Assembly: GCA_045863855.1 (NCBI GenBank)
Contig: BTVV01000148.1
Location: 1-13,817 of the forward strand
Source: Planctomycetota bacterium
GTDB lineage: Bacteria > Planctomycetota > SZUA-567 > H5-PLA8
Direction: 5' to 3'
Length of the DNA stretch: 13,817 nt
The position numbers were made by a program, and so were the translations under genes. Position 1 is the stretch's first letter. Every line of letters starts with the position of its first letter. The notes under the pieces were generated by a model. That model ran no database searches, had not been told where the DNA came from, and saw nothing but the letters and a program-made list of their open reading frames with translations. Below, in pieces: positions 3,087-13,817 of the stretch.

Positions 3087-5672
3087 CTACTTCGTCAGCG
3101 TCCACCAATGCACGCCCGCCGCCGCGGGCAGTTCGATCCGGTACGCGCCGTCTTCCCGTGCCAGCGGAAGGGCTGCTCCGGGCTTTCCGTCCGGGCCGCA
3201 CGGGACGAGCTGCAAGCCTTCGACCTCCGACGCGAAGCGCAACGTCGCGCGCACCGGTTCGCTGTGGAAGCGGTTGACGTTTCCTTCTGTGATCGGGCGC
3301 ACGCGAGCCACCGCCGTCAGCAGCACGCGCGTCGACTTTGAGAGCGGTTCCGCCGTCAGGCTGTTCAGCGCGATCAGCGCCTTCGGCGTCCGCGATTCGG
3401 CGCTCAACGGCCCCGCGGTCAGTTTACCGGCTTCGCCCAGCCAGCCTTGTAAGGCCACCCCGCCCGGCGTGACCACCGTCTGCACGCCGCGCTTCAATTC
3501 GCGCTTCAACTCGCCGGTGTCCGAGACGATCTCGGCGGCTTCGGCCCCCAGGTAGCTCTTGTGCGGATCGTCGATCGTCTCGACGCCTTCGGCCGGCGTG
3601 CTGGCCTTCACCCAAGGCAGCTCTGGGATCGCCTCGAGGCCGATCGTGACCCGGTGCGTCTCCATCAGCGTGCGCACTGCGCGCGACTGTTCGCCGGACA
3701 GCTTTTTATCCAGCGCCGTCTCGCGCTTGGCTCGGAGCATCACCGTTTGCTTGGCTTGCCGGACGTCGCGGCGAAAAAAGAGCGCCGCGGCGGGCATCGC
3801 CGCCGTCACCCCCGGATCGCCGTAGCTCGACCAGTTGTCGATCCCGCGCGCCCCCGTGCCGAAGATATCCTGGCTGTACCCGTACAGCATCGGCGCGTCC
3901 CAGCCTTGCAGCGCCCCCACCGCCGCCCAGTACACCGGCATCGTGAAGCGGTCGCGGCCGGGGTAATGCCCGATGTTGTATTCCGTGATCGCGAACGGTT
4001 TGCCGTAAAGCTGAGCGCCGGCGGCGGTATGGAGAAAGTTCGAGCCCGTCCGCGGATCGGCGGACAGCGCTTCGTCCCCGCCGTAGCTGTGGCAATCCAC
4101 GATCCCGCCCCGCGCCAGCGAGTACAGCGCGCCCATCCCCATCCCGCCCCAGACGTGCCCCGCCGCCACCGGCGGCTTGATTCCGAAGCCTTCCAGATGC
4201 CCCAGCATCGTCTCGAAGAATTGATGCTCTTTATCGAGCAGGAAAAGCTTCGCGGGACCGTCGATCCACGTCTTCCACGTCTCGTCCGGAGGCAATCCCG
4301 TCCGCGCGCAGAACGCGCTGACTTCGGCCTGGAACATCTTCGTGTGCTCCGGCACGCCCTTGTCCGGGAGCAGCGCGTTGCCGAAGTGGTACACCAGATC
4401 GTTCTCGTTGGTCAGCAGCAGCCCCATCACCGCGGGCTCGTCCTTCAGCGCCAGGCCCGTATGCGGATTTACCGCGCCGAGGTATTTCTCCGCGAATTCG
4501 CGCATCAATTCGGCAATCCGGGGATTGTAGTAACAATATCCCTTCCCTTCGCTCACTCCGTTCTTGCCCTTCCGAGCCAGCTCGTCGAAGTTCGGAATCT
4601 CGTCCCCGGCCTTGAACGGACGCCCCACGTGTACGTCGATCCAGACGTATACGCCCTCGTCCTTCAGGCATTTCACGAACCAATGCAAGTTATCCAGCGC
4701 CTGAGCGTCCAGATCGCGGCTGTGCGGCTTCTCCAGATCGATCAGGCACGGCTTCACCCACGTCCCGCTGTCGTGATGGTGCAGCCGGATCAGGTTGAAG
4801 CCCAGCTTCGCGATGCGCTCCGCCTGCTTTTTCAGCGCGTCTTTGCTCGATCGGAAGAGCGCATACGCCTGTACGTTCGCGCCCCAGAATTTCACCGGCG
4901 TCCCGTCCGCGAAGACCAGCCGTTCGCCGTCCGCTTTCACGAAGCCGTGCTTGCCCGCCGGCGCATCGTTGAGAAACCGCAGGTCCACCGGGCTTTCGTC
5001 CGGGTGCAAGGCATCCAGCGGCCATTGCTCCAGCGGTTCCGGCCCGTAGCGCTCGTCCAGCGAAGCGACCACCTCCCCGCCTTCCGGCAGCGTCACCGTC
5101 ATCGTGAACGGAATCTGCCCTGCCGCGACCTTCTCCGCGAAGAAGAACGTACGGATCGTGTCTTTGCGTCCCTTCTCGAAGAAAATCGAACCTACCGGCG
5201 GATCGAACGTCACTTCCAGCGCCTGCCCTTTCACCGCCTCCCAGCGCCAACCCTTCCCGCCTTCCAGCAGCACCGGCTCCGGCGGCGCTTGTTCGAAAGC
5301 ATCCGGACCCAGCTTCAGCGCGAACTCCAGCCCGCCGCCGATTACGTCGGCCTTCGCTTCTGCGGCGGTCCAGTCGTAACGGTAGATCAGTTGCCGCTCG
5401 CTGGCGCGTTTGATCGTCCCGTTCAGCGTCAGGCCCAGGCCGGGCACCGCACCGCCCAACGTGTAACCGCCGTCCCCGTCGCTCTGGGCGCCCACTTTCG
5501 GAGCGGCGAATTTCCAGTTCGCCGCCCAGAAGACGTACTTCGCGCCGGCCACGCGCGAGCCGCGGTAGCCGACCGCAAGCGTCCCCTCCGACGTGGCCTG
5601 CAATTCCCAATCGGCCGCGTGAGCGCTGAAAGCGCACAGCAGCGCGCACAAGATCGGCATCGTCAATCGCAT
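3087..5672 (-). CDS. Secreted clan GH-A (GH5-like) glycoside hydrolase with extra N- and C-terminal domains (861 aa)
   Basis: GGAG lies 7 nt before ATG 5672, followed by signal peptide MRLTMPILCALLCAFSAHAA. Motifs are FADGTPVKFWGAN, LGFNLIRLHH, GVYVWIDVH, LLTNEN (putative acid/base Glu), VDCHSY and GKPFAITEYN (putative nucleophile Glu). Confidence 0.85.
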   Translation of the reverse strand: MRLTMPILCALLCAFSAHAADWELQATSEGTLAVGYRGSRVAGAKYVFWAANWKFAAPKVGAQSDGDGGYTLGGAVPGLGLTLNGTIKRASERQLIYRYDWTAAEAKADVIGGGLEFALKLGPDAFEQAPPEPVLLEGGKGWRWEAVKGQALEVTFDPPVGSIFFEKGRKDTIRTFFFAEKVAAGQIPFTMTVTLPEGGEVVASLDERYGPEPLEQWPLDALHPDESPVDLRFLNDAPAGKHGFVKADGERLVFADGTPVKFWGANVQAYALFRSSKDALKKQAERIAKLGFNLIRLHHHDSGTWVKPCLIDLEKPHSRDLDAQALDNLHWFVKCLKDEGVYVWIDVHVGRPFKAGDEIPNFDELARKGKNGVSEGKGYCYYNPRIAELMREFAEKYLGAVNPHTGLALKDEPAVMGLLLTNENDLVYHFGNALLPDKGVPEHTKMFQAEVSAFCARTGLPPDETWKTWIDGPAKLFLLDKEHQFFETMLGHLEGFGIKPPVAAGHVWGGMGMGALYSLARGGIVDCHSYGGDEALSADPRTGSNFLHTAAGAQLYGKPFAITEYNIGHYPGRDRFTMPVYWAAVGALQGWDAPMLYGYSQDIFGTGARGIDNWSSYGDPGVTAAMPAAALFFRRDVRQAKQTVMLRAKRETALDKKLSGEQSRAVRTLMETHRVTIGLEAIPELPWVKASTPAEGVETIDDPHKSYLGAEAAEIVSDTGELKRELKRGVQTVVTPGGVALQGWLGEAGKLTAGPLSAESRTPKALIALNSLTAEPLSKSTRVLLTAVARVRPITEGNVNRFHSEPVRATLRFASEVEGLQLVPCGPDGKPGAALPLAREDGAYRIELPAAAGVHWWTLTK

Positions 5673-5856
5673 CGTGAGGCTCCGGGTCGAACGCATTACC
5701 ATATATAGCGCATACACGGCCCGCACCGGATAAGCGGCGTAAGCAGCGGAAAACGAAAGCCCCTAACCGGCGGCATCGAACCGGTTTAGCTCCCGGTGCG
5801 CTCCGCGGCGAAAAGCCGCCCTCATTCAGGCGCGGAAACTAACGGCAAATCGAGCG

Positions 5857-6489: not shown

Positions 6490-6590
6490 GATGCGTTTCT
6501 CCGCGCTCCTTTGAATAACGCCCGATTCCCGAAACCTTTTAACGCGCGCCGCCGCGTCCGCCAACCGGATTCCCCTTCCGCCGCGCGCTA

Positions 6591-6618
6591 TGGACGTTTC
6601 GAGCTTCCTTTATATGCT
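6591..6618 (+). promoter_or_regulatory. Possible sigma70-type promoter of the MscS gene
   Basis: TGGACG (6591-6596) - 16 nt - TATGCT (6613-6618), in the divergent intergenic region and 8 nt before ATG 6627. Confidence 0.35.
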
Positions 6619-6626
6619 GCATCCAC

Positions 6627-8153
6627 ATGATCGATTACACGTTGAACGCTTTACACGACGGCGCCGGGCTGGTGCTGCTCAGTTTCGTGTTGCTGGGCGG
6701 ATTGCTGTACCGCGGGCTTCCGCATCGGGACGACCGCCGCGCGCTCACCCTGGCTTCCGGCTTCTTCGCGCTCACCTTCCTCGCGCTCATCGCCGGCTTC
6801 GTGCTCCGGCCCGCCGGACAAACCGGCCCCGATCCCCGCCTTGTGTACGCCTGCGTCTTCGTCGAAGGCCTCTGCCTCCTCACCCTCGTGATCCTGGCCT
6901 TTTTCCGCGCGCTCCTCCCCGCCTTGAATTTTCATCCGCCCAAGATTCTGCAGGACCTGGCCACCGCCGCGCTCTGGGCCGTCTGGGCGCTCGTGCTCCT
7001 CAACATCGCCGGCGCCAGTCTTACGGGGCTCATCACCACCAGCGCCGTCTTGACCGCGGTGATCGGCTTCGCGATGCAGGATACCCTCGGCAACGTCCTT
7101 GGCGGACTCGCCATACAGCTCGACCGCAGCGTCAAAGTCGGCGAATGGATCAAGGTCGGCGACCTGAACGGGCGCGTCGTCGAGATCGGCTGGCGTCACA
7201 CCGCCATCGAAACCCGCAACTGGGAAACGGTGATCCTGCCCAACAGCCAATTGATGAAAAACAGTTTTCTCGTCCTCGGCCGCCGCCAAGGACAGCCCGA
7301 ACAGTGGCGCCGCTGGGTCTGGTTCAACATCGATTACCGCCACGCGCCCAGCGAAGTCATCCGCGTCGTCGAACGCGAACTGCGCCGCGCCGAGATCCCC
7401 GGCGTCGCCGCCGAGCCCGCGCCCAACTGCATCATGATGAACTTCGACGAGAGTTTCGGGCGCTATGCCGTGCGCTACTGGCTCACCGATCTTAACCGCG
7501 ACGATCCCACCGACTCGCAGATCCGCGTGCTCGTCTACCTCGCGCTTCAGCGCGCAGGCATTCCGCTCTCGATTCCCGCGCACGCGATCTTCATGACCGA
7601 GGAATCCGACGAACGCAAAGCGCGCAAGGCCGGAGAAGCACAGGCCAAACGCATCGCCGCGCTCAAAGCCGTGGACCTCTTCGCGGGCCTCAACGCCGAA
7701 GAACTTGCCGTGCTCGCCGAAAAGGTACGCCCCGCGCCGTACAGCCCCGGAACCGTACTCACCCGCCAAGGCGACGAAGCGCACTGGTTGTACATCCTCG
7801 TCGAAGGCAAGTGCGACGTGATCCTGCAGAGTCCCGACGGCGAATCGCGCCCCATCGGCACGCTCGGCCCCGGACAGTTCTTCGGCGAATGGGGGCTGCT
7901 CACCGGCGAACCGCGCCACGCCACCGTGATCGGCCGTGCCGACGGATACTGCCTGCGCCTCGACAAAGAAGCCTTCCGCTCGACGCTCCAGCAGCGCCCG
8001 GAACTCGCCGAGCAATGTTCCAAGCTCCTCGCCGCCCGCCAAAGCGCCTTTCAGAACGCCGCCAAGGAACTCGACGAAGCCGCCCGCGCCAAACTCCTCG
8101 CGCAGTCGGCTTCCGATATTCTCGACAAGATCAAAGGATTCTTCGGCGTGTAA
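6627..8153 (+). CDS. MscS-family mechanosensitive channel with a C-terminal cyclic-nucleotide-binding domain (508 aa)
   Basis: Several N-terminal TM helices precede the MscS core IGFAMQDTLGNVLGGLAIQLDRSVKVGEWIKVG...GRVVEIGWRHT...VILPNSQL. The cNMP domain includes VDLFAGL, LTRQGDEAHWLYILVEG and the phosphate-binding cassette GQFFGEWGLLTGEPRHATV. Confidence 0.93.
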   Translation: MIDYTLNALHDGAGLVLLSFVLLGGLLYRGLPHRDDRRALTLASGFFALTFLALIAGFVLRPAGQTGPDPRLVYACVFVEGLCLLTLVILAFFRALLPALNFHPPKILQDLATAALWAVWALVLLNIAGASLTGLITTSAVLTAVIGFAMQDTLGNVLGGLAIQLDRSVKVGEWIKVGDLNGRVVEIGWRHTAIETRNWETVILPNSQLMKNSFLVLGRRQGQPEQWRRWVWFNIDYRHAPSEVIRVVERELRRAEIPGVAAEPAPNCIMMNFDESFGRYAVRYWLTDLNRDDPTDSQIRVLVYLALQRAGIPLSIPAHAIFMTEESDERKARKAGEAQAKRIAALKAVDLFAGLNAEELAVLAEKVRPAPYSPGTVLTRQGDEAHWLYILVEGKCDVILQSPDGESRPIGTLGPGQFFGEWGLLTGEPRHATVIGRADGYCLRLDKEAFRSTLQQRPELAEQCSKLLAARQSAFQNAAKELDEAARAKLLAQSASDILDKIKGFFGV

Positions 8154-8261: not shown

Positions 8262-8954
8262 TTACCTCTCGCTCGCCACCGCGCCCGCCAGCACCCGCAC
8301 CGCATACCCGCAGCTCAAGCTCCGGCCCGTCGCCGGATCGTGCAGCTCCGCGCGGAAGCGCCCCGCGTATCGCATCGTTCCCTTCAGCACCGGGACGGTC
8401 CCGCCGAAGAGCACCAGGCCCTCCGTCGCGCCGGCGCGAGCCAGCAGGTCTTCGGGCGGGCGCAGCAGGCTCAGCGTGCCTTGTTGGTAAAGCTCTTCGG
8501 GCCCGTCGCCCTCCTGCACGAAGCTGCGCAGCACCAGTTCGTCCCAGCGCGAACGCAGATCCGTCAGCCGCCAGACGTTCGTACCCGCGATTTTGGGGCA
8601 GACCTGCTTGGATTGCAGAATGTCGTGCCGCTCCAGACCCCGGTCGGTGTGATCGCTCCCGACGCCGACGTAAATCTCCTTCTGCGCGACGAAAAAGACC
8701 GCCTCGGCCTCGCCCGAAGTCCGCGCGCTGACCACCTCGATCTCCGCGCCCGTGCTCAGATTCCGCGCGGGCACCGGCATGATCAGCGGGATCTGCGCTG
8801 GCGGCGGCACGCCTTCGTGCTCCAGCTCTTCGATATGCGCGCGCACCGCCGCTTCGTTGCGCCCGCTGTACCCGGCGCAGATCAGCCGGCGCACGGTGAA
8901 GGCCCGCGGAGCGGGGCACGGCTCGGCGTGGACTTGCAGCGAAAGCAACGTCAT
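8262..8954 (-). CDS. DUF2848 family protein (FAH-like fold), 230 aa
   Basis: ATG 8954 overlaps the cupin TGA (ATGA). Signature segments are ICAGYSGRNEAAVRAHIEEL..GVPPP, TSGEAEAV, VGVGSDHTDRGLE..SKQVCPK, YQQGTL and LFGGTVP. Confidence 0.88.
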   Translation of the reverse strand: MTLLSLQVHAEPCPAPRAFTVRRLICAGYSGRNEAAVRAHIEELEHEGVPPPAQIPLIMPVPARNLSTGAEIEVVSARTSGEAEAVFFVAQKEIYVGVGSDHTDRGLERHDILQSKQVCPKIAGTNVWRLTDLRSRWDELVLRSFVQEGDGPEELYQQGTLSLLRPPEDLLARAGATEGLVLFGGTVPVLKGTMRYAGRFRAELHDPATGRSLSCGYAVRVLAGAVASER

Positions 8955-9316
8955 GAACGCTTCTCCCCAGGCTCGAAGTAGTGGATCTCGAAGAGCAGGC
9001 AGCCGCCTTCGCTCTTGAACGGCCCGTGCGGCGTGCCCGGCGGGCGCACCGCGTACGTGAACGGCTCGAAGCGTTCGCCGCCCACGCTCAGGTCGCCCTG
9101 CACCAGGAATACCTCTTCCCAGTACGTGTGCTCGAACGGAAGCGTCGTGAACGCGCCCGGCGCGAAGCGCAAGAGCCGCGTGCGACAGCCGTAGCGCCGC
9201 GATTCGTCCAGCGATCCGGCCAGCCGCTTCTCTTCGATCCCCGGTGGATAGCCCGGCGGCGGCGACCATCCCCCGCTCAGATCGACCGTGAAGAACTCCA
9301 GGTGTTCCTTCAACAC
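8951..9316 (-). CDS. ChrR-like cupin domain protein (121 aa)
   Basis: GTG start after AAAGGA. Cupin motifs are TRLLRFAPGAFT..FEHTYWEEVFLVQGDL and YAVRPPGTPHGPFKS, with His/Glu/His as candidate metal ligands. Confidence 0.88.
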   Translation of the reverse strand: MLKEHLEFFTVDLSGGWSPPPGYPPGIEEKRLAGSLDESRRYGCRTRLLRFAPGAFTTLPFEHTYWEEVFLVQGDLSVGGERFEPFTYAVRPPGTPHGPFKSEGGCLLFEIHYFEPGEKRS

Positions 9317-9329
9317 GGCTTTTGTCCTT

Positions 9330-10277
9330 TCAGGCCAGGCCGAAATGCCGGCGCAGGAAATCCAGTTCGCTCTCGTACGGCGTCGGCGTGTCCTTCGTCA
9401 CCAGCGTGCACTCCAGCCCCAGCGCGTCGTAGCGTTCCTTCAGCAGCTTCCCGTGATTTGGATGGTGAATATCCCCGGTCGTGTCGGACAGGGACATGCG
9501 GTAGCTTGTGTACAGCGGCGGAGCGTTCGAGCGCAGATGCGTGATCGCCGCCGAGTCGATCATCTTCCAATTGGCTTCAGGCGGCGGATCCAGGATCTGA
9601 TCCGGCGTGATCCCGAAGAGCGGCGGCAGGCACGGATTCTTGTACGCGTCCCCGGGCAGGTGAATCTTGACGAAGCGCGGATCGTAACTGCACTGACCCT
9701 GGTAGACCACGAGGCACGTCAGGCGCGTCGACTCCCGCGCCACCGGATCGGTGCTATGCGGATCCGCCCTATCGTCGCGGAAGCCGATCCACATGCTGAT
9801 CCCCGCGCCGGCCGATCCGCCCGCCGCCGCGAAGCGCGTGGCGTCCAGGTTCCATTCGCGCGCCTTCGAGCGCAGGAACTGCACCGCGCGCGCGCCGTCT
9901 TCCATCGGCGCCGGATACGTCACCTCCGGCGTCAGGCGGTAGTGAATCGAAGCCAGCGAGATCCCCGAATCGAGCAGCCGCTTGGAAGGATCGCTCGACT
10001 TCATCCATTCGCGGCTGCTGGCGGCGCTCTTATCCCCGCCCTTGAATCCGCCGCCGTGGATGAAGACCAGCAGCGGTGTCGGACGGTCCGATTTCGCTTT
10101 CCAGAAATCCAGCACCTGCCGCGGATGCGGGCCGTACGGCACGTTTGCGTAATCCGGCGCCACCGCCGGCGCTTCCGTTTCCGGCTTCGGACTCGCCGGC
10201 GCGGCGACGCCCGCGTCGGGAACGACCCGCGCGATAAGCAGCATCAGCAGGGTCATGCAGAGTATCGTGACGATCAT
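9330..10277 (-). CDS. Alpha/beta hydrolase, HSL-type / BD-FAE-like esterase, probably exported (315 aa)
   Basis: Motifs are NVPYGPHPRQVLD, PLLVFIHGGGFKGGDK (oxyanion hole), SIHYRLTP, AAGGSAGAG (nucleophile elbow) and IHHPNHG (candidate catalytic His). The N-terminus is hydrophobic. Confidence 0.9.
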   Translation of the reverse strand: MIVTILCMTLLMLLIARVVPDAGVAAPASPKPETEAPAVAPDYANVPYGPHPRQVLDFWKAKSDRPTPLLVFIHGGGFKGGDKSAASSREWMKSSDPSKRLLDSGISLASIHYRLTPEVTYPAPMEDGARAVQFLRSKAREWNLDATRFAAAGGSAGAGISMWIGFRDDRADPHSTDPVARESTRLTCLVVYQGQCSYDPRFVKIHLPGDAYKNPCLPPLFGITPDQILDPPPEANWKMIDSAAITHLRSNAPPLYTSYRMSLSDTTGDIHHPNHGKLLKERYDALGLECTLVTKDTPTPYESELDFLRRHFGLA

Positions 10278-10317: not shown

Positions 10318-11259
10318 TCAAGGTTTCTTGAACAGCCACGCTTTCGTGACCGGATCGGCGCTCAGGAAAGCCCAATACTTCTCGACGAATATCGCCAGCG
10401 CCTTCGGCGACGGGTGTACGCCGTCGGCGAAATAGGATCGATCCCACGTGTTGTCCCAGATGTACGGACCCCATTGCAGCCAGGGAAGCTTCCGTCCCGG
10501 GCCCGCGAAGGCCGCGGCCGGATCGCCTTTAAGCTGGCTTTCGATCAACCACTTGAAAGCGAACGCCTCGCGCCAGACGTGCGGTTCCTGCCCCGTGAAG
10601 TGCCGGAAACCGTCGCAGGTGAGGTAGCAGAGCTTCAAGTTCGGATAAGTCGCGGCGCAGCGCCCCAGCACCGTGGCCAGATCGCTCTGCATCTTTTGCA
10701 TCTCGCCCGGGAACGGGCCGGCCGGTTGGTTGCCTTTGTTGTTCGCGCCGTGATACGTGGTGTGCAGGAACAGCACCTGCACCTGCAAGGGCGAGTAGCC
10801 CGGGCGCTTGACTTGGTTGTTCAGCAAGGTCCAGACCCTGCCCTGCTCGTTCATCAGTTGCGGAAGCTGGTTGCCGCTGACGGCCCCGTTGAGCAACTCG
10901 AAGCGCGGATGAAGTTCGGCCTGCTTCGATTCCAGGTGCCGGCCCAAGGCCGTGAAGTACTGTTTGCAGTTCGAATGCCCCGCGACGAGCGCGAGGATGC
11001 GCCCGTTCGCCGCGTCGGGTTTACCGGCCTCGTCCAGCGGCTGAATCGTGGCCGCGAGCGCCTCGCCGGCTTTGCGGTGCGCCTCGGGAATCTCGTTTTT
11101 GCCGCCCGGGTACAAGCCCGTCTCGCGCCCCTCGTACGCCTCGCCCGACGTGAAAGGCTTGAGCGTAGACGGATCGAACCCGCCGCGTTCCCCCGCCGCC
11201 GAATCGCCCGCCGCCAGGACCGCCAACGCCGCAAGCAGCAGATGTAAAATCGCTCTCAT
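10318..11259 (-). CDS. Secreted uncharacterised SGNH/GDSL-like protein (paralog B, 313 aa)
   Basis: ATG 11259 follows AAAAGGGG and gives signal peptide MRAILHLLLAALAVLAAGDSAA. SGNH-like blocks are ILALVAGHSN (I), LNGAVSG (II) and ADGVHPS (V, DxxH). It aligns end to end with the C-terminal half of the upstream CDS. Confidence 0.8.
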   Translation of the reverse strand: MRAILHLLLAALAVLAAGDSAAGERGGFDPSTLKPFTSGEAYEGRETGLYPGGKNEIPEAHRKAGEALAATIQPLDEAGKPDAANGRILALVAGHSNCKQYFTALGRHLESKQAELHPRFELLNGAVSGNQLPQLMNEQGRVWTLLNNQVKRPGYSPLQVQVLFLHTTYHGANNKGNQPAGPFPGEMQKMQSDLATVLGRCAATYPNLKLCYLTCDGFRHFTGQEPHVWREAFAFKWLIESQLKGDPAAAFAGPGRKLPWLQWGPYIWDNTWDRSYFADGVHPSPKALAIFVEKYWAFLSADPVTKAWLFKKP

Positions 11260-11365
11260 TGACCGCACCCCTTTTGGTTGGCCCCAACCCCAACCCACCG
11301 CCCGTCCTAACCCACTACCGTCGCCGTTCACTGTCCGCCGTTTACTTTTCATGCCCTACCGCTTC

Positions 11366-13042
11366 CTACTTCCCCCTCACCATCCATCCCCGCGCCACCG
11401 GATCGTTCGTAAGGAAGTCCCAGTATTGCTCCACGAAATGCGCGCGTGCCTTGTCCGCCGGATGAACGCCGTCGGTGAAGTAACTCGCGTCCCACGCGTT
11501 GTCCCAGAGGTACGGTCCCCAGCTCAGCCACGGTTCCCGGCGCGCCGCGCCTTCGAACGCCGTCCCTTCCGCCCCCATCAACTGCCGCTCGATCGCCCAG
11601 CGGATCCCGAACGCCTCGCGCCACACATGCGGCTCGAAGCCCGTGTGATGCCGGAACCCGTCGGCCGTCAGGTACGCCAGCTTTAGATTCGGGCACAGTT
11701 CCGCCACGCGCCCCAGCAGCGTCTCGAGGTCGTGGCGCATCTGCTGATAGCGTGCGGGGAACGGTTCGGACGAGAAGCGGTGAATGTTCTTTGCGCCGTG
11801 GTAGGTCGTATGCAGAAAGAGCGCCTGGACCTGCTTGATCGAGTAACCCGGCCGCGCGGTGAACTCCTCGATGTTCTTCCACACCGGGCGCTTCGAGTCG
11901 TTCAGCAATTCGTGAAGCTGCTGCCCGCCGACGGCGCAGTTCAGCAGTTCGAAGCGCGGATGCAGCCGCTCGCGCTGCGTGGCCAGATGCTTTTCGAACT
12001 CAGCGAAGTACTGATTGCAGTTCGAATGCCCCATCACGATGGCCAGGATGCGCCCGTTGCGCTCGTCCACGTTCCCGTCCGCGTCCAGCGGCTGGATCGA
12101 AGCCGCCAGCCGCAGCCCCGATTCGGTGTGCACGCCCGGGCGCTGATTCGAACCGCCCGGATACAGCCCCGTCTCGTAGCGCCCCAGGTACGGCGCGCCG
12201 TCGGTGAATTTGCGCAGCGTGGACGGATCGAACGGTTCCAGCATGGTTTCGGCTCCTTGAACTACGGGGGTGGAGGCGAGCACGCGGTCGGCCAGCGCCG
12301 GGAACTCCCGCCGCGCGCGGTCCACCGCTTCGAAATCGGCTTCGGCCGTGACGAGCGCTGCTCCGGAATCGCCGGCCGCCAGCACCGCGCCCCACGGATC
12401 GACCAACTGGCTGTGCCCGGCGAGCGCGCGGCCTTCGCTTGAGCCCGTCGCGTTGCAGCTAAAAAGAAAAGCGAGGTTTTCGTGCGCGCGCGCTCGGTTA
12501 AAGAGCAGCCACGCTTCACGCCGCGCTTCGGGCCAGGCCGAGGCGACCAGGAAGCCCTTCGCGCCGCGGTCGGTCATGGCCCGGAAGAGTTCCGGGAAGC
12601 GTAAGTCGTAGCACGTCGCCAGCCCCAGCGGCCCCCACGGCGTCGGCGCCACCGCCGGCTCGCCGCCGCGGCAGAGCCGCTTCTGTTCTTCGCTGCCGTA
12701 GCCGAAAAGGTGCATCTTCCGGTAGCGCCCCAGCACCGCGCCCCCCGGACTCAAAAGCACGCTCGTGTTGTACAGACGCCCCGCATCCGACTCGACGAAG
12801 CTGCCCATGAACAGATGCAGCTTCAGCTTCCGCGCCGCATCGCTCAGCGCGCGCACCAGCGGGCCGTCCAGCGCCTCCGCGTCCGCCGCGTAACGCTCGA
12901 AAGAGAAGTAGCCGGTGGGCCAAAGCTCGGGGAGCAGCGCGAGGTCGCTGCCGCGCGCTTCGTTCAGGCGCGCCAGCGCCCGTTCCAGTGCCGCCGCCTT
13001 CGGCTCGCCCCGGCATTCAAGCGGGATGCTGGTGACGCGCAT
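11366..13042 (-). CDS. Nitrilase-superfamily carbon-nitrogen hydrolase fused in frame to an SGNH-like domain (paralog A), 558 aa; may represent two genes
   Basis: GGAGG RBS before ATG 13042. The Glu-Lys-Cys triad motifs are LLPELW, YRKMHLF and ATCYDLRFPE, and the domain ends GHSQLVDPWG...RREFPALADR. The C-terminal 292 aa from Met at 12244 carry VMGHSN, LNCAVGG and TDGVHP. Confidence 0.85.
   Translation of the reverse strand: MRVTSIPLECRGEPKAAALERALARLNEARGSDLALLPELWPTGYFSFERYAADAEALDGPLVRALSDAARKLKLHLFMGSFVESDAGRLYNTSVLLSPGGAVLGRYRKMHLFGYGSEEQKRLCRGGEPAVAPTPWGPLGLATCYDLRFPELFRAMTDRGAKGFLVASAWPEARREAWLLFNRARAHENLAFLFSCNATGSSEGRALAGHSQLVDPWGAVLAAGDSGAALVTAEADFEAVDRARREFPALADRVLASTPVVQGAETMLEPFDPSTLRKFTDGAPYLGRYETGLYPGGSNQRPGVHTESGLRLAASIQPLDADGNVDERNGRILAIVMGHSNCNQYFAEFEKHLATQRERLHPRFELLNCAVGGQQLHELLNDSKRPVWKNIEEFTARPGYSIKQVQALFLHTTYHGAKNIHRFSSEPFPARYQQMRHDLETLLGRVAELCPNLKLAYLTADGFRHHTGFEPHVWREAFGIRWAIERQLMGAEGTAFEGAARREPWLSWGPYLWDNAWDASYFTDGVHPADKARAHFVEQYWDFLTNDPVARGWMVRGK
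12242..12258 (-). promoter_or_regulatory. Internal ribosome-binding site and ATG at the nitrilase/SGNH-like domain boundary
   Basis: The minus strand reads AAGGAG (12258-12253) - 8 nt - ATG (12244-12242), in frame and exactly where homology to mature paralog B begins (FDPSTL). Confidence 0.7.
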
Positions 13043-13727
13043 GCTCGCCGCCCTCCACCAGAGCCGCGGACTCCGCGCGGCCGTCTACCAGATGCGCTTC
13101 CGTCGCCGCCAGATGCCGGCGCATCGCCAGCACCGCGCCAGCCGCGTCGCGCGCACGCAGTGCATGCAAAATTGCCGCATGTTCGCGCAGCACCTCCTGC
13201 ATGCGCCCTTCCTGTTCCAGCGCCGTGTAGCCCATCAACAGGATGCAGGCGCGAAAGTTCTCCAGCGTCGCGCGCAAAAGCCGGTTCCCGTGCTGCGCCA
13301 GCAGTGCCTGGTGAAAATCTTCGTCCGCCGCCAGAAACTGTTCGCGGTCCCGGTTGTCCGCGGCATCGGCCATGCGCCGGCCCGCCTGCTCCAACGCCTC
13401 CAGCGCCAGGTCTTCCCGAGCCGCCAGCCCCGCGACGATGTGGCACTCGATCGCTTCCCGCGCTTCGAAGAACTCCCGCACCTCGCGCCGGCTGAATCGG
13501 CGGACCTGATAGCCTCTACCTTTTAAGGGCACCAAGATGCCTTCGGCGGCCAACTGCAAGAGCGCCTCCCGTACCGGCGTCCGCGATACGCCCAGCGTGT
13601 CCGCCAACTGGTTTGCCGAATGGACGTCCTCGGCCGACAAGCGGCCGCTCAGCAGCAGGTCGCGCACGCGCCGATAGACCAAGTCTTTCAGGGTCTCGGG
13701 GCGAGCGATGGGGCGAGTGGAAGTCAT
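13017..13727 (-). CDS. GntR-family transcriptional regulator, FadR/FCD subfamily (236 aa)
   Basis: The wHTH is TLKDLVYRRVRDLLLSG...LADTLGVSRTPVREALLQLAAEG. The FCD domain includes FEAREAIE, ADEDFHQAL..GNRLL and EHAAILHAL..D...AMRRHL. AGGAAGG lies upstream of ATG 13727. The 3' end overlaps the nitrilase start by 26 nt. Confidence 0.93.
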   Translation of the reverse strand: MTSTRPIARPETLKDLVYRRVRDLLLSGRLSAEDVHSANQLADTLGVSRTPVREALLQLAAEGILVPLKGRGYQVRRFSRREVREFFEAREAIECHIVAGLAAREDLALEALEQAGRRMADAADNRDREQFLAADEDFHQALLAQHGNRLLRATLENFRACILLMGYTALEQEGRMQEVLREHAAILHALRARDAAGAVLAMRRHLAATEAHLVDGRAESAALVEGGEHARHQHPA

Positions 13728-13769
13728 GGAGCGGGTGGCCTTCCTAGCAGCGGATTTTACGAATCCGTA

Positions 13770-13797
13770 TTGCCTCTTTGCTTGCATGTAGTATACT
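13770..13797 (+). promoter_or_regulatory. Putative sigma70 promoter firing rightwards out of the window, divergent from gntR
   Basis: TTGCCT (13770-13775) - 16 nt - TATACT (13792-13797). The -10 box lies inside the palindrome. Confidence 0.5.
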
Positions 13798-13805
13798 ACA
13801 TGCAA
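13782..13805. promoter_or_regulatory. Perfect 24-bp palindrome, likely GntR operator
   Basis: TTGCATGTAGTA|TACTACATGCAA is exactly self-complementary, AT-rich in a GC-rich window, and 54 bp upstream of the gntR ATG. Its GTATAC core fits the general GntR GT..AC operator pattern. Confidence 0.8.
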
Positions 13806-13817
13806 CATGGAACGGGC

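Follow-up and report, generated by a model that had tools for sequence, protein, structure and literature searches.

A 13,817-nucleotide contig from a Planctomycetota bacterium (BTVV01000148.1 in assembly GCA_045863855.1, here C148) was analysed in full and is referred to as the window. On its minus strand lies a gene whose product joins a nitrilase-superfamily amidase domain to a second catalytic domain, which we predict to have an SGNH fold. The source metagenome-assembled genome (MAG; G000 in our set) comprises 6.9 Mb in 287 contigs and is 93.9% complete. The fusion gene is laid out as follows.

11366..13042, minus strand: fusion gene (P0001), 558 aa plus stop, an uninterrupted run of 558 codons ending in TAG
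12278..13042, minus strand: nitrilase-superfamily (CN_hydrolase) domain, residues 1-255, with presumed catalytic Glu39, Lys109 and Cys144
12233..12277, minus strand: linker, residues 256-270, varying in length and sequence among fused homologues
11369..12232, minus strand: predicted SGNH-fold domain, residues 271-558, with Ser340 (in GHSNC), Gly373, Asn419 and Asp524-x-x-His527
12242..12258, minus strand: in-frame AAGGAG-N8-ATG within the linker (Met266), which may serve as an internal start or be there by chance

GGAGG stands 9 nt ahead of the ATG of the fusion gene, the protein has no signal peptide, and the linker at the junction reads ...VLASTPVVQGAETMLEPFDP... / ...ASTPVVQGAETM.... The gene that follows (10318..11352, minus strand) encodes a related domain: its residues 59-342 and residues 271-556 of the fusion share 59% identity across 286 aligned columns (E = 3e-121). 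The genome has no copy of the C-terminal domain beyond these two. The 558 open codons, the CN_hydrolase match described below and this 59% identity bear out a first-pass annotation of the DNA, which had described an open frame running from a Glu-Lys-Cys hydrolase domain through a linker into a domain paralogous to the following gene.

We found that the N-terminal half matches the Pfam family CN_hydrolase (PF00795) over residues 21-245 (E = 4e-44, 151.3 bits versus a cutoff of 23.2). Glu39, Lys109 and Cys144, which we take to be the catalytic triad on the strength of the familiar motif, do not vary among eight fused proteins or across the 42 rows of an alignment of relatives. The closest solved structures by sequence are mouse Nit2 (2w1v, 1.3e-31), yeast Nit3 (1f89, 1.2e-26) and worm NitFhit (1ems, 1.5e-22). 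Nit2/omega-amidase, Nit1 and NitFhit have the CN_hydrolase domain with Glu-Lys-Cys in common with the N-terminal half of the fusion, and NitFhit also resembles it in having another enzyme domain attached C-terminally to its Nit domain, although the partner there is a HIT domain and here a predicted SGNH-fold domain. None of the named NCBIfam equivalog cutoffs was reached: the best score, against deaminated glutathione amidase (NF033621), was 102.8 bits versus a cutoff of 355, and the 2-oxoglutaramate-type amidohydrolase PRK10438 gave 82.1 bits versus 249. By sequence, the putative amidase is Nit-branch-like and forms a subfamily of its own, and because it lies far below all the named equivalog cutoffs, a substrate is not transferable to it from the named enzymes.

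The C-terminal half matched no Pfam model even at E<=10 and no NCBIfam model, and a profile of the domain searched against the PDB by sequence returned nothing usable (best E 0.26). Its paralogue scored 14.2 bits against Lipase_GDSL, short of the cutoff of 23.6. A structural model built from a 76-row alignment had a mean predicted local distance difference test score (pLDDT) of 93.4 and a predicted template modelling score (pTM) of 0.92, and a Foldseek search of the PDB with this model produced 59 matches at E<=0.001 with SGNH/GDSL esterases at the top. Across the 76 sequences Gly-His-Ser-Asn (residues 338-341 of the fusion, including Ser340), Gly373, Asp524 and His527 are invariant, and Asn419 is nearly so. 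In the model GHSN follows strand 1, Gly373 follows strand 2, Asn419 follows strand 3, and Asp524 and His527 precede the last long helix, positions that were assigned from the strands and helices of the model together with conservation rather than by residue-level superposition and that fit what we take to be the layout of SGNH blocks I, II, III and V. Because fold and motif both fit, the suggestion that this half is SGNH-like is confirmed at the level of the predicted model, its Foldseek matches and the conserved blocks; we read it as an SGNH-fold domain that keeps its catalytic residues and predict esterase or acylhydrolase activity for it. Identity to SGNH/GDSL hydrolases such as GDSL esterase 7e16, Ape1 (8gkd), the CE3 acetyl esterase 5b5s, Axe2 (3w7v) and TesA (4jgg) is only 8-16%, and the domain differs from them in having GHSN instead of GDS in block I and an extra N-terminal segment of about 65 residues.

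We then asked how widely the fusion occurs. A search of 5.8 billion proteins recovered the same full-length architecture in seven further 90%-identity clusters (97, 70, 64, 55, 55, 55 and 53% identity), two of which carry the NCBI name 'carbon-nitrogen family hydrolase [Planctomycetota bacterium]'. In an alignment of the eight fused proteins both domains are conserved and the linker is variable. Five of 41 related genomes, the source genome included, encode the full-length fusion: G000, G001 and G002 belong to one genus (g1), and G004 and G012 to a second genus of the same family (g3). A scan with the C-terminal domain profile of one genome per prokaryote species yielded 32 loci, 4 of them fused and all four in Planctomycetota MAGs. 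Comparison of G000 with G002 gave ratios of nonsynonymous to synonymous substitution (dN/dS) of 0.10 for the amidase half and 0.077 for the SGNH half, indicating purifying selection on both.

One could suppose that an error of sequencing or assembly had run two separate genes together at the junction, since the source MAG is fragmented (287 contigs) and a TAG lies in the +1 frame directly ahead of AAGGAG. However, four runs, each from a different study, gave contigs that read through the junction in the same open frame, free of indels and stops. There were 0 differences in X1 and X2, which cover an entire 901-base stretch, and 0 in X4 over 11817-12700; X1-X4 carry a flag marking them as possible origins of the DNA analysed. 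X5 carries no such flag and contributes a contig covering 12015-12626 with two substitutions, and the one checked, at 12206, is synonymous. The fused frame is moreover kept, with differing linkers, in the seven other clusters and in four other genomes, and the +1 TAG is missing from G002. An error at the junction is on these grounds extremely improbable. We also considered whether the +1-frame TAG could be the fossil stop of a recent fusion, and rejected this, given the age of the fusion and the absence of the TAG from G002. Related genomes conserve the fusion, which is real, an artefact being excluded as far as sequence data go. That the gene specifies a single genuine protein in which both active sites are competent is, in our view, very probable.

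The linker raises a separate question, namely whether Met266 serves in this genus as an internal start that would give a free cytoplasmic SGNH enzyme, alone or beside the fused form. The AAGGAG-N8-ATG is the single such site in the window, where 0.06 would be expected, it resembles the ribosome-binding site ahead of the start of the fusion itself, and it is retained in G002. However, 10 of 200 shuffles yielded such a site and the search was made after the site had been seen; conservation in G002 says little because the two are 96% identical, and the six other fused homologues have no Met at this position. Judged from sequence, a second product of this kind is improbable. A complex prediction between the amidase domain and the SGNH domain, run without controls, scored 0.00, a value that speaks neither for nor against contact between them.

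The fusion gene sits in an operon with the following neighbours.

13017..13808, minus strand: GntR/FCD regulator, the first gene of the operon, whose end overlaps the fusion start by 26 nt
10318..11259, minus strand: stand-alone SGNH-fold paralogue, predicted to be exported, 313 aa counted from Met32 of P0002 (the open reading frame extends up to 11352), with a signal-peptide-like N-terminus
9330..10277, minus strand: alpha/beta hydrolase of BD-FAE / Abhydrolase_3 type, with a hydrophobic, signal-like N-terminus
8951..9316, minus strand: small ChrR-type cupin (P0125), 121 aa, Cupin_7 E 5.4e-7 and 29.8 bits versus a cutoff of 27, its stop overlapping the DUF2848 start
8262..8954, minus strand: DUF2848 protein, 230 aa from an internal Met, Pfam E 1.9e-64, predicted to have the fumarylacetoacetate-hydrolase (FAH) fold

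A database protein of 313 aa (P0041) corresponds to the form of the paralogue encoded in the window. Translation of DUF2848 most likely begins with the ATG at 8954, in an ATGA-type overlap with the cupin stop. The longer open reading frame 8262..9269 was rejected as the DUF2848 gene; it is an overcall whose first 105 codons overlap the cupin in another frame. G001, G002, G004, G012 and G007 share the gene order GntR, amidase, cupin, DUF2848, while the alpha/beta hydrolase is limited to the genus of the window and the exported paralogue to G000 and G002. An HpaB-type flavin oxygenase (TIGR02309-like, 329 bits, under the cutoff of 480) is divergent from GntR in all five of these relatives. In the source genome the HpaB-type gene is found at the very start of another contig (C2, positions 75-1514), and because this neighbour of GntR begins C2, that contig is probably the continuation of C148 at the window end, 13817. 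Elsewhere in the window are a von Willebrand A domain protein open at the contig start (3..1889, plus strand), an 879-aa protein with a weak GH5 cellulase match (3087..5726, minus strand, E 4.8e-6) and a 508-aa protein with MscS mechanosensitive-channel and cyclic-nucleotide-binding domains (6627..8153, plus strand, 96% in G002).

Phylogenies of the two domains bear on how the fusion arose and what became of it. The C-terminal domain tree places the exported paralogues from G000 and G002 among the fused domains of genus g1 (support of 94 in the Shimodaira-Hasegawa-like approximate likelihood ratio test), and G001 has the fused copy only. Most simply read, the fused state came first and the exported gene arose as a tandem duplicate of the domain that acquired a signal peptide, though the opposite order is possible. 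A sister genus, represented by G007, carries at 6576..7754 (minus strand) of its contig C66 (locus L019) an amidase-cupin fusion of 392 aa, in which the start Met of the cupin can still be made out after the linker; the cluster there lacks an SGNH domain. The amidase tree groups the amidase-cupin proteins of G007, P0047 and P0051 with the amidase-SGNH protein P0005 (support 99/100), and in the C-terminal domain tree the P0005 domain groups with that of the window (100). These two groupings indicate that the amidase-cupin lineage lost its SGNH domain and fused the next gene, the cupin, in its place.

The same amidase subfamily has acquired other partners as well. Among 74 long relatives of the amidase, 64 are fused to DUF2848 and none contains a Pfam GDSL domain; the cupin is the partner in the three amidase-cupin proteins, and DUF2390 in three clusters. 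The CN_hydrolase-DUF2848 proteins, found in Acidimicrobiia and others (about 485 aa, 46-54% identity, named 'DUF2848 family protein' or 'predicted amidohydrolase' at the source), likewise have their partner fused at the C-terminus, but it is a predicted FAH-fold domain without SGNH, whereas DUF2848 is a separate gene in the operon studied here. The amidase C-terminus is evidently a spot where a downstream gene is readily captured. Four different neighbours have been captured at the same C-terminus, and one capture was later undone or replaced, making this a case of fusion turnover.

Such promiscuity lends itself to a neutral explanation, in which a short spacer lost its stop and operon neighbours now sit like beads on a string, with neither a shared substrate nor coupling. 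The partners that differ by lineage are what this explanation would predict, as are the variable linker, the persistence at the junction, both here and in the G007 cupin fusion, of the Met with which the downstream gene began, the loss of the SGNH domain in one lineage and the missing neighbourhood link elsewhere. However, fusions persist in homologues as distant as 53% identity and in two genera, purifying selection on each half is strong, and the fused copy is without the signal peptide found in most relatives, which suggests an SGNH copy adapted to the cytoplasm, where the amidase works. We regard neutral fusion as the main rival to a functional reading and as fairly unlikely.

The partner most often joined to the amidase, DUF2848 (PF11010), is predicted from its structural model (pLDDT 92.1) to have the FAH fold. 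Foldseek returned 90 matches at E<=0.001, all those listed belonging to the FAH family (top match 3v77, 3.9e-9); they include fumarylpyruvate hydrolases, the oxaloacetate decarboxylases Cg1458, FAHD1 and YisK, HpcE, and 2-keto-3-deoxy-sugar-acid dehydratases. By sequence there was no Pfam FAA_hydrolase match and the best E in a PDB sequence search was 0.14. A protein atlas offered weak leads, with a score of 0.82 for DUF5718, 2-keto-4-pentenoate hydratase and FAA_hydrolase, and a full-text literature search gave no mention of DUF2848. Its E-x-E and DHTD motifs are nearly invariant and might form a metal site. DUF2848-amidase fusions occur in at least 64 clusters (among P0094-P0123 and P0273-P0312), several of them named Acidimicrobiia or Ilumatobacteraceae by NCBI.

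The family of the C-terminal domain is a sizeable SGNH-fold family, as judged from the model, and lies outside the curated sequence models: an exhaustive HMMER search of 1.84 billion representatives recovered 1,726 clusters at E<=0.001, 963 of them at E<=1e-10. Most close stand-alone relatives (62 of 75, about 306-446 aa) have a hydrophobic, signal-peptide-like N-terminus, called by a simple hydropathy rule rather than a signal-peptide predictor, ahead of the conserved FDPxTL domain start, and about 10 do not. Among 85 more distant multi-domain relatives we found 12 with a type IX secretion (T9SS) sorting tail and some with Ig, PKD, cadherin-like, Laminin_G_3 (4), CBM96 (1) or GH26 (2) domains; none has CN_hydrolase. 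Three of the 85 (P0149, P0154 and P0209) contain a BD-FAE alpha/beta esterase domain, so that the predicted SGNH fold and BD-FAE are paired within one protein there and in adjacent genes here (10318..11259 and 9330..10277). Stand-alone forms at 15 genome loci have mixed neighbours, among them GH2, GH9, melibiase, PcRGLX-like proteins, 3-keto-disaccharide hydrolase, PQQ-type propellers and an FGE-sulfatase domain. From these partners and neighbours the family looks like one of exported esterases acting on glycans or glycan decorations. In the flanks of 28 genome loci with unfused relatives of the domain, the orthologous amidase, cupin, DUF2848 and GntR were found at none.

These surveys qualify the idea, raised when the fusion was first noticed, of a Rosetta-stone link between amide hydrolysis and the SGNH-fold family. 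The link holds within this lineage and not in general, as the unfused loci, the multi-domain relatives and the loss of the SGNH domain in the sister lineage all attest. The consistent partners of the amidase are DUF2848 and the cupin, not the SGNH-fold family, and the amidase-cupin-DUF2848 link is the stronger one; the HpaB-type oxygenase and the GntR regulator also stay with the cluster.

Since the fusion is conserved and both catalytic sets are kept, a two-activity enzyme combining an amidase with an esterase or deacylase is the natural reading. The accompanying proposal of a bifunctional amidase/deacylase accordingly stands as regards the real fusion and its two retained catalytic sets, with the paired activities themselves a prediction. 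We think it somewhat probable that the protein is a cytoplasmic two-domain hydrolase supplying two hydrolytic steps in a breakdown cluster, and much less so that it acts on any particular substrate. The fused protein would carry out de-esterification or deacylation and then deamidation of one imported compound. The core cluster may start from a cyclic compound, phenolic or otherwise, and degrade it to the amide of a 2-oxo acid. Deamidation would fall to the Nit2-like Cys amidase, on the model of omega-amidase, and cleavage or decarboxylation of the product to the predicted FAH-fold enzyme, an analogy drawn from acylpyruvate hydrolases and oxaloacetate decarboxylases. Esterified or acylated forms would become accessible to the pathway through the SGNH domain, which would strip the ester or acyl group either from the same imported compound or from one of its precursors. 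It may be a lineage-specific add-on from a mostly exported, carbohydrate-esterase-like family, captured through stop loss between adjacent genes. The duplicate SGNH copy has a signal peptide and adjoins the exported BD-FAE esterase, and both would thus play the equivalent part extracellularly.

Several points weigh against this proposal. We infer the coupling of the two domains of the fusion, and the omega-amidase chemistry is an analogy, the putative amidase being far below the named equivalog cutoffs. Outside the fused lineage the amidase family is adjacent to the C-terminal domain family at 0 of 28 loci. The sister lineage of G007, P0047 and P0051, which has no SGNH domain, keeps the rest of the cluster, and the SGNH domain is therefore dispensable for the core pathway. 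The amidase C-terminus is joined to whatever lies downstream, be it DUF2848, cupin or DUF2390, so that neutral capture fits as well as functional coupling does, and a ring-cleaving role for the cupin would be a guess.

A fuller version of the proposed two-step hydrolase, which we rate as distinctly unlikely in all its parts, would make the cluster an undescribed catabolic island composed of the HpaB-type oxygenase, GntR, amidase-SGNH, cupin and FAH-fold DUF2848. Such an island would take up plant or algal phenolic esters and amides released by the exported esterases of the cluster, use a single polypeptide to remove both the amide and the acyl or ester group, and pass a 2-oxo acid to the FAH-fold enzyme.

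Fusions of nitrilase-superfamily domains to Fhit, NAD synthetase, the Lnt membrane domain and acetyltransferase-like domains are known. The first-pass annotation knew of none with an SGNH-like domain, and likewise no description of a nitrilase-SGNH fusion was found in the portions of articles that full-text literature searches brought up. The protein combines two known catalytic folds, one of them predicted, in a combination we found undescribed there, the second coming from an unmodelled family; the sequences themselves are already public under generic names. Practical value will be modest until a substrate is found. The fusion adds a domain architecture, a nitrilase-superfamily amidase with a predicted SGNH-fold esterase, and it gives context to two unknown families, placing DUF2848 with a Nit-type amidase, a cupin and an HpaB-type oxygenase, and the SGNH-fold family with BD-FAE esterases and glycan-degrading genes. 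If the catabolic island proved true, it would provide a first function both for DUF2848 and for the unnamed SGNH family of about 1,700 clusters, and it would mean that a catalytic domain was moved from the exported space into the cytoplasm by fusion and back out again by duplication and gain of a signal peptide.

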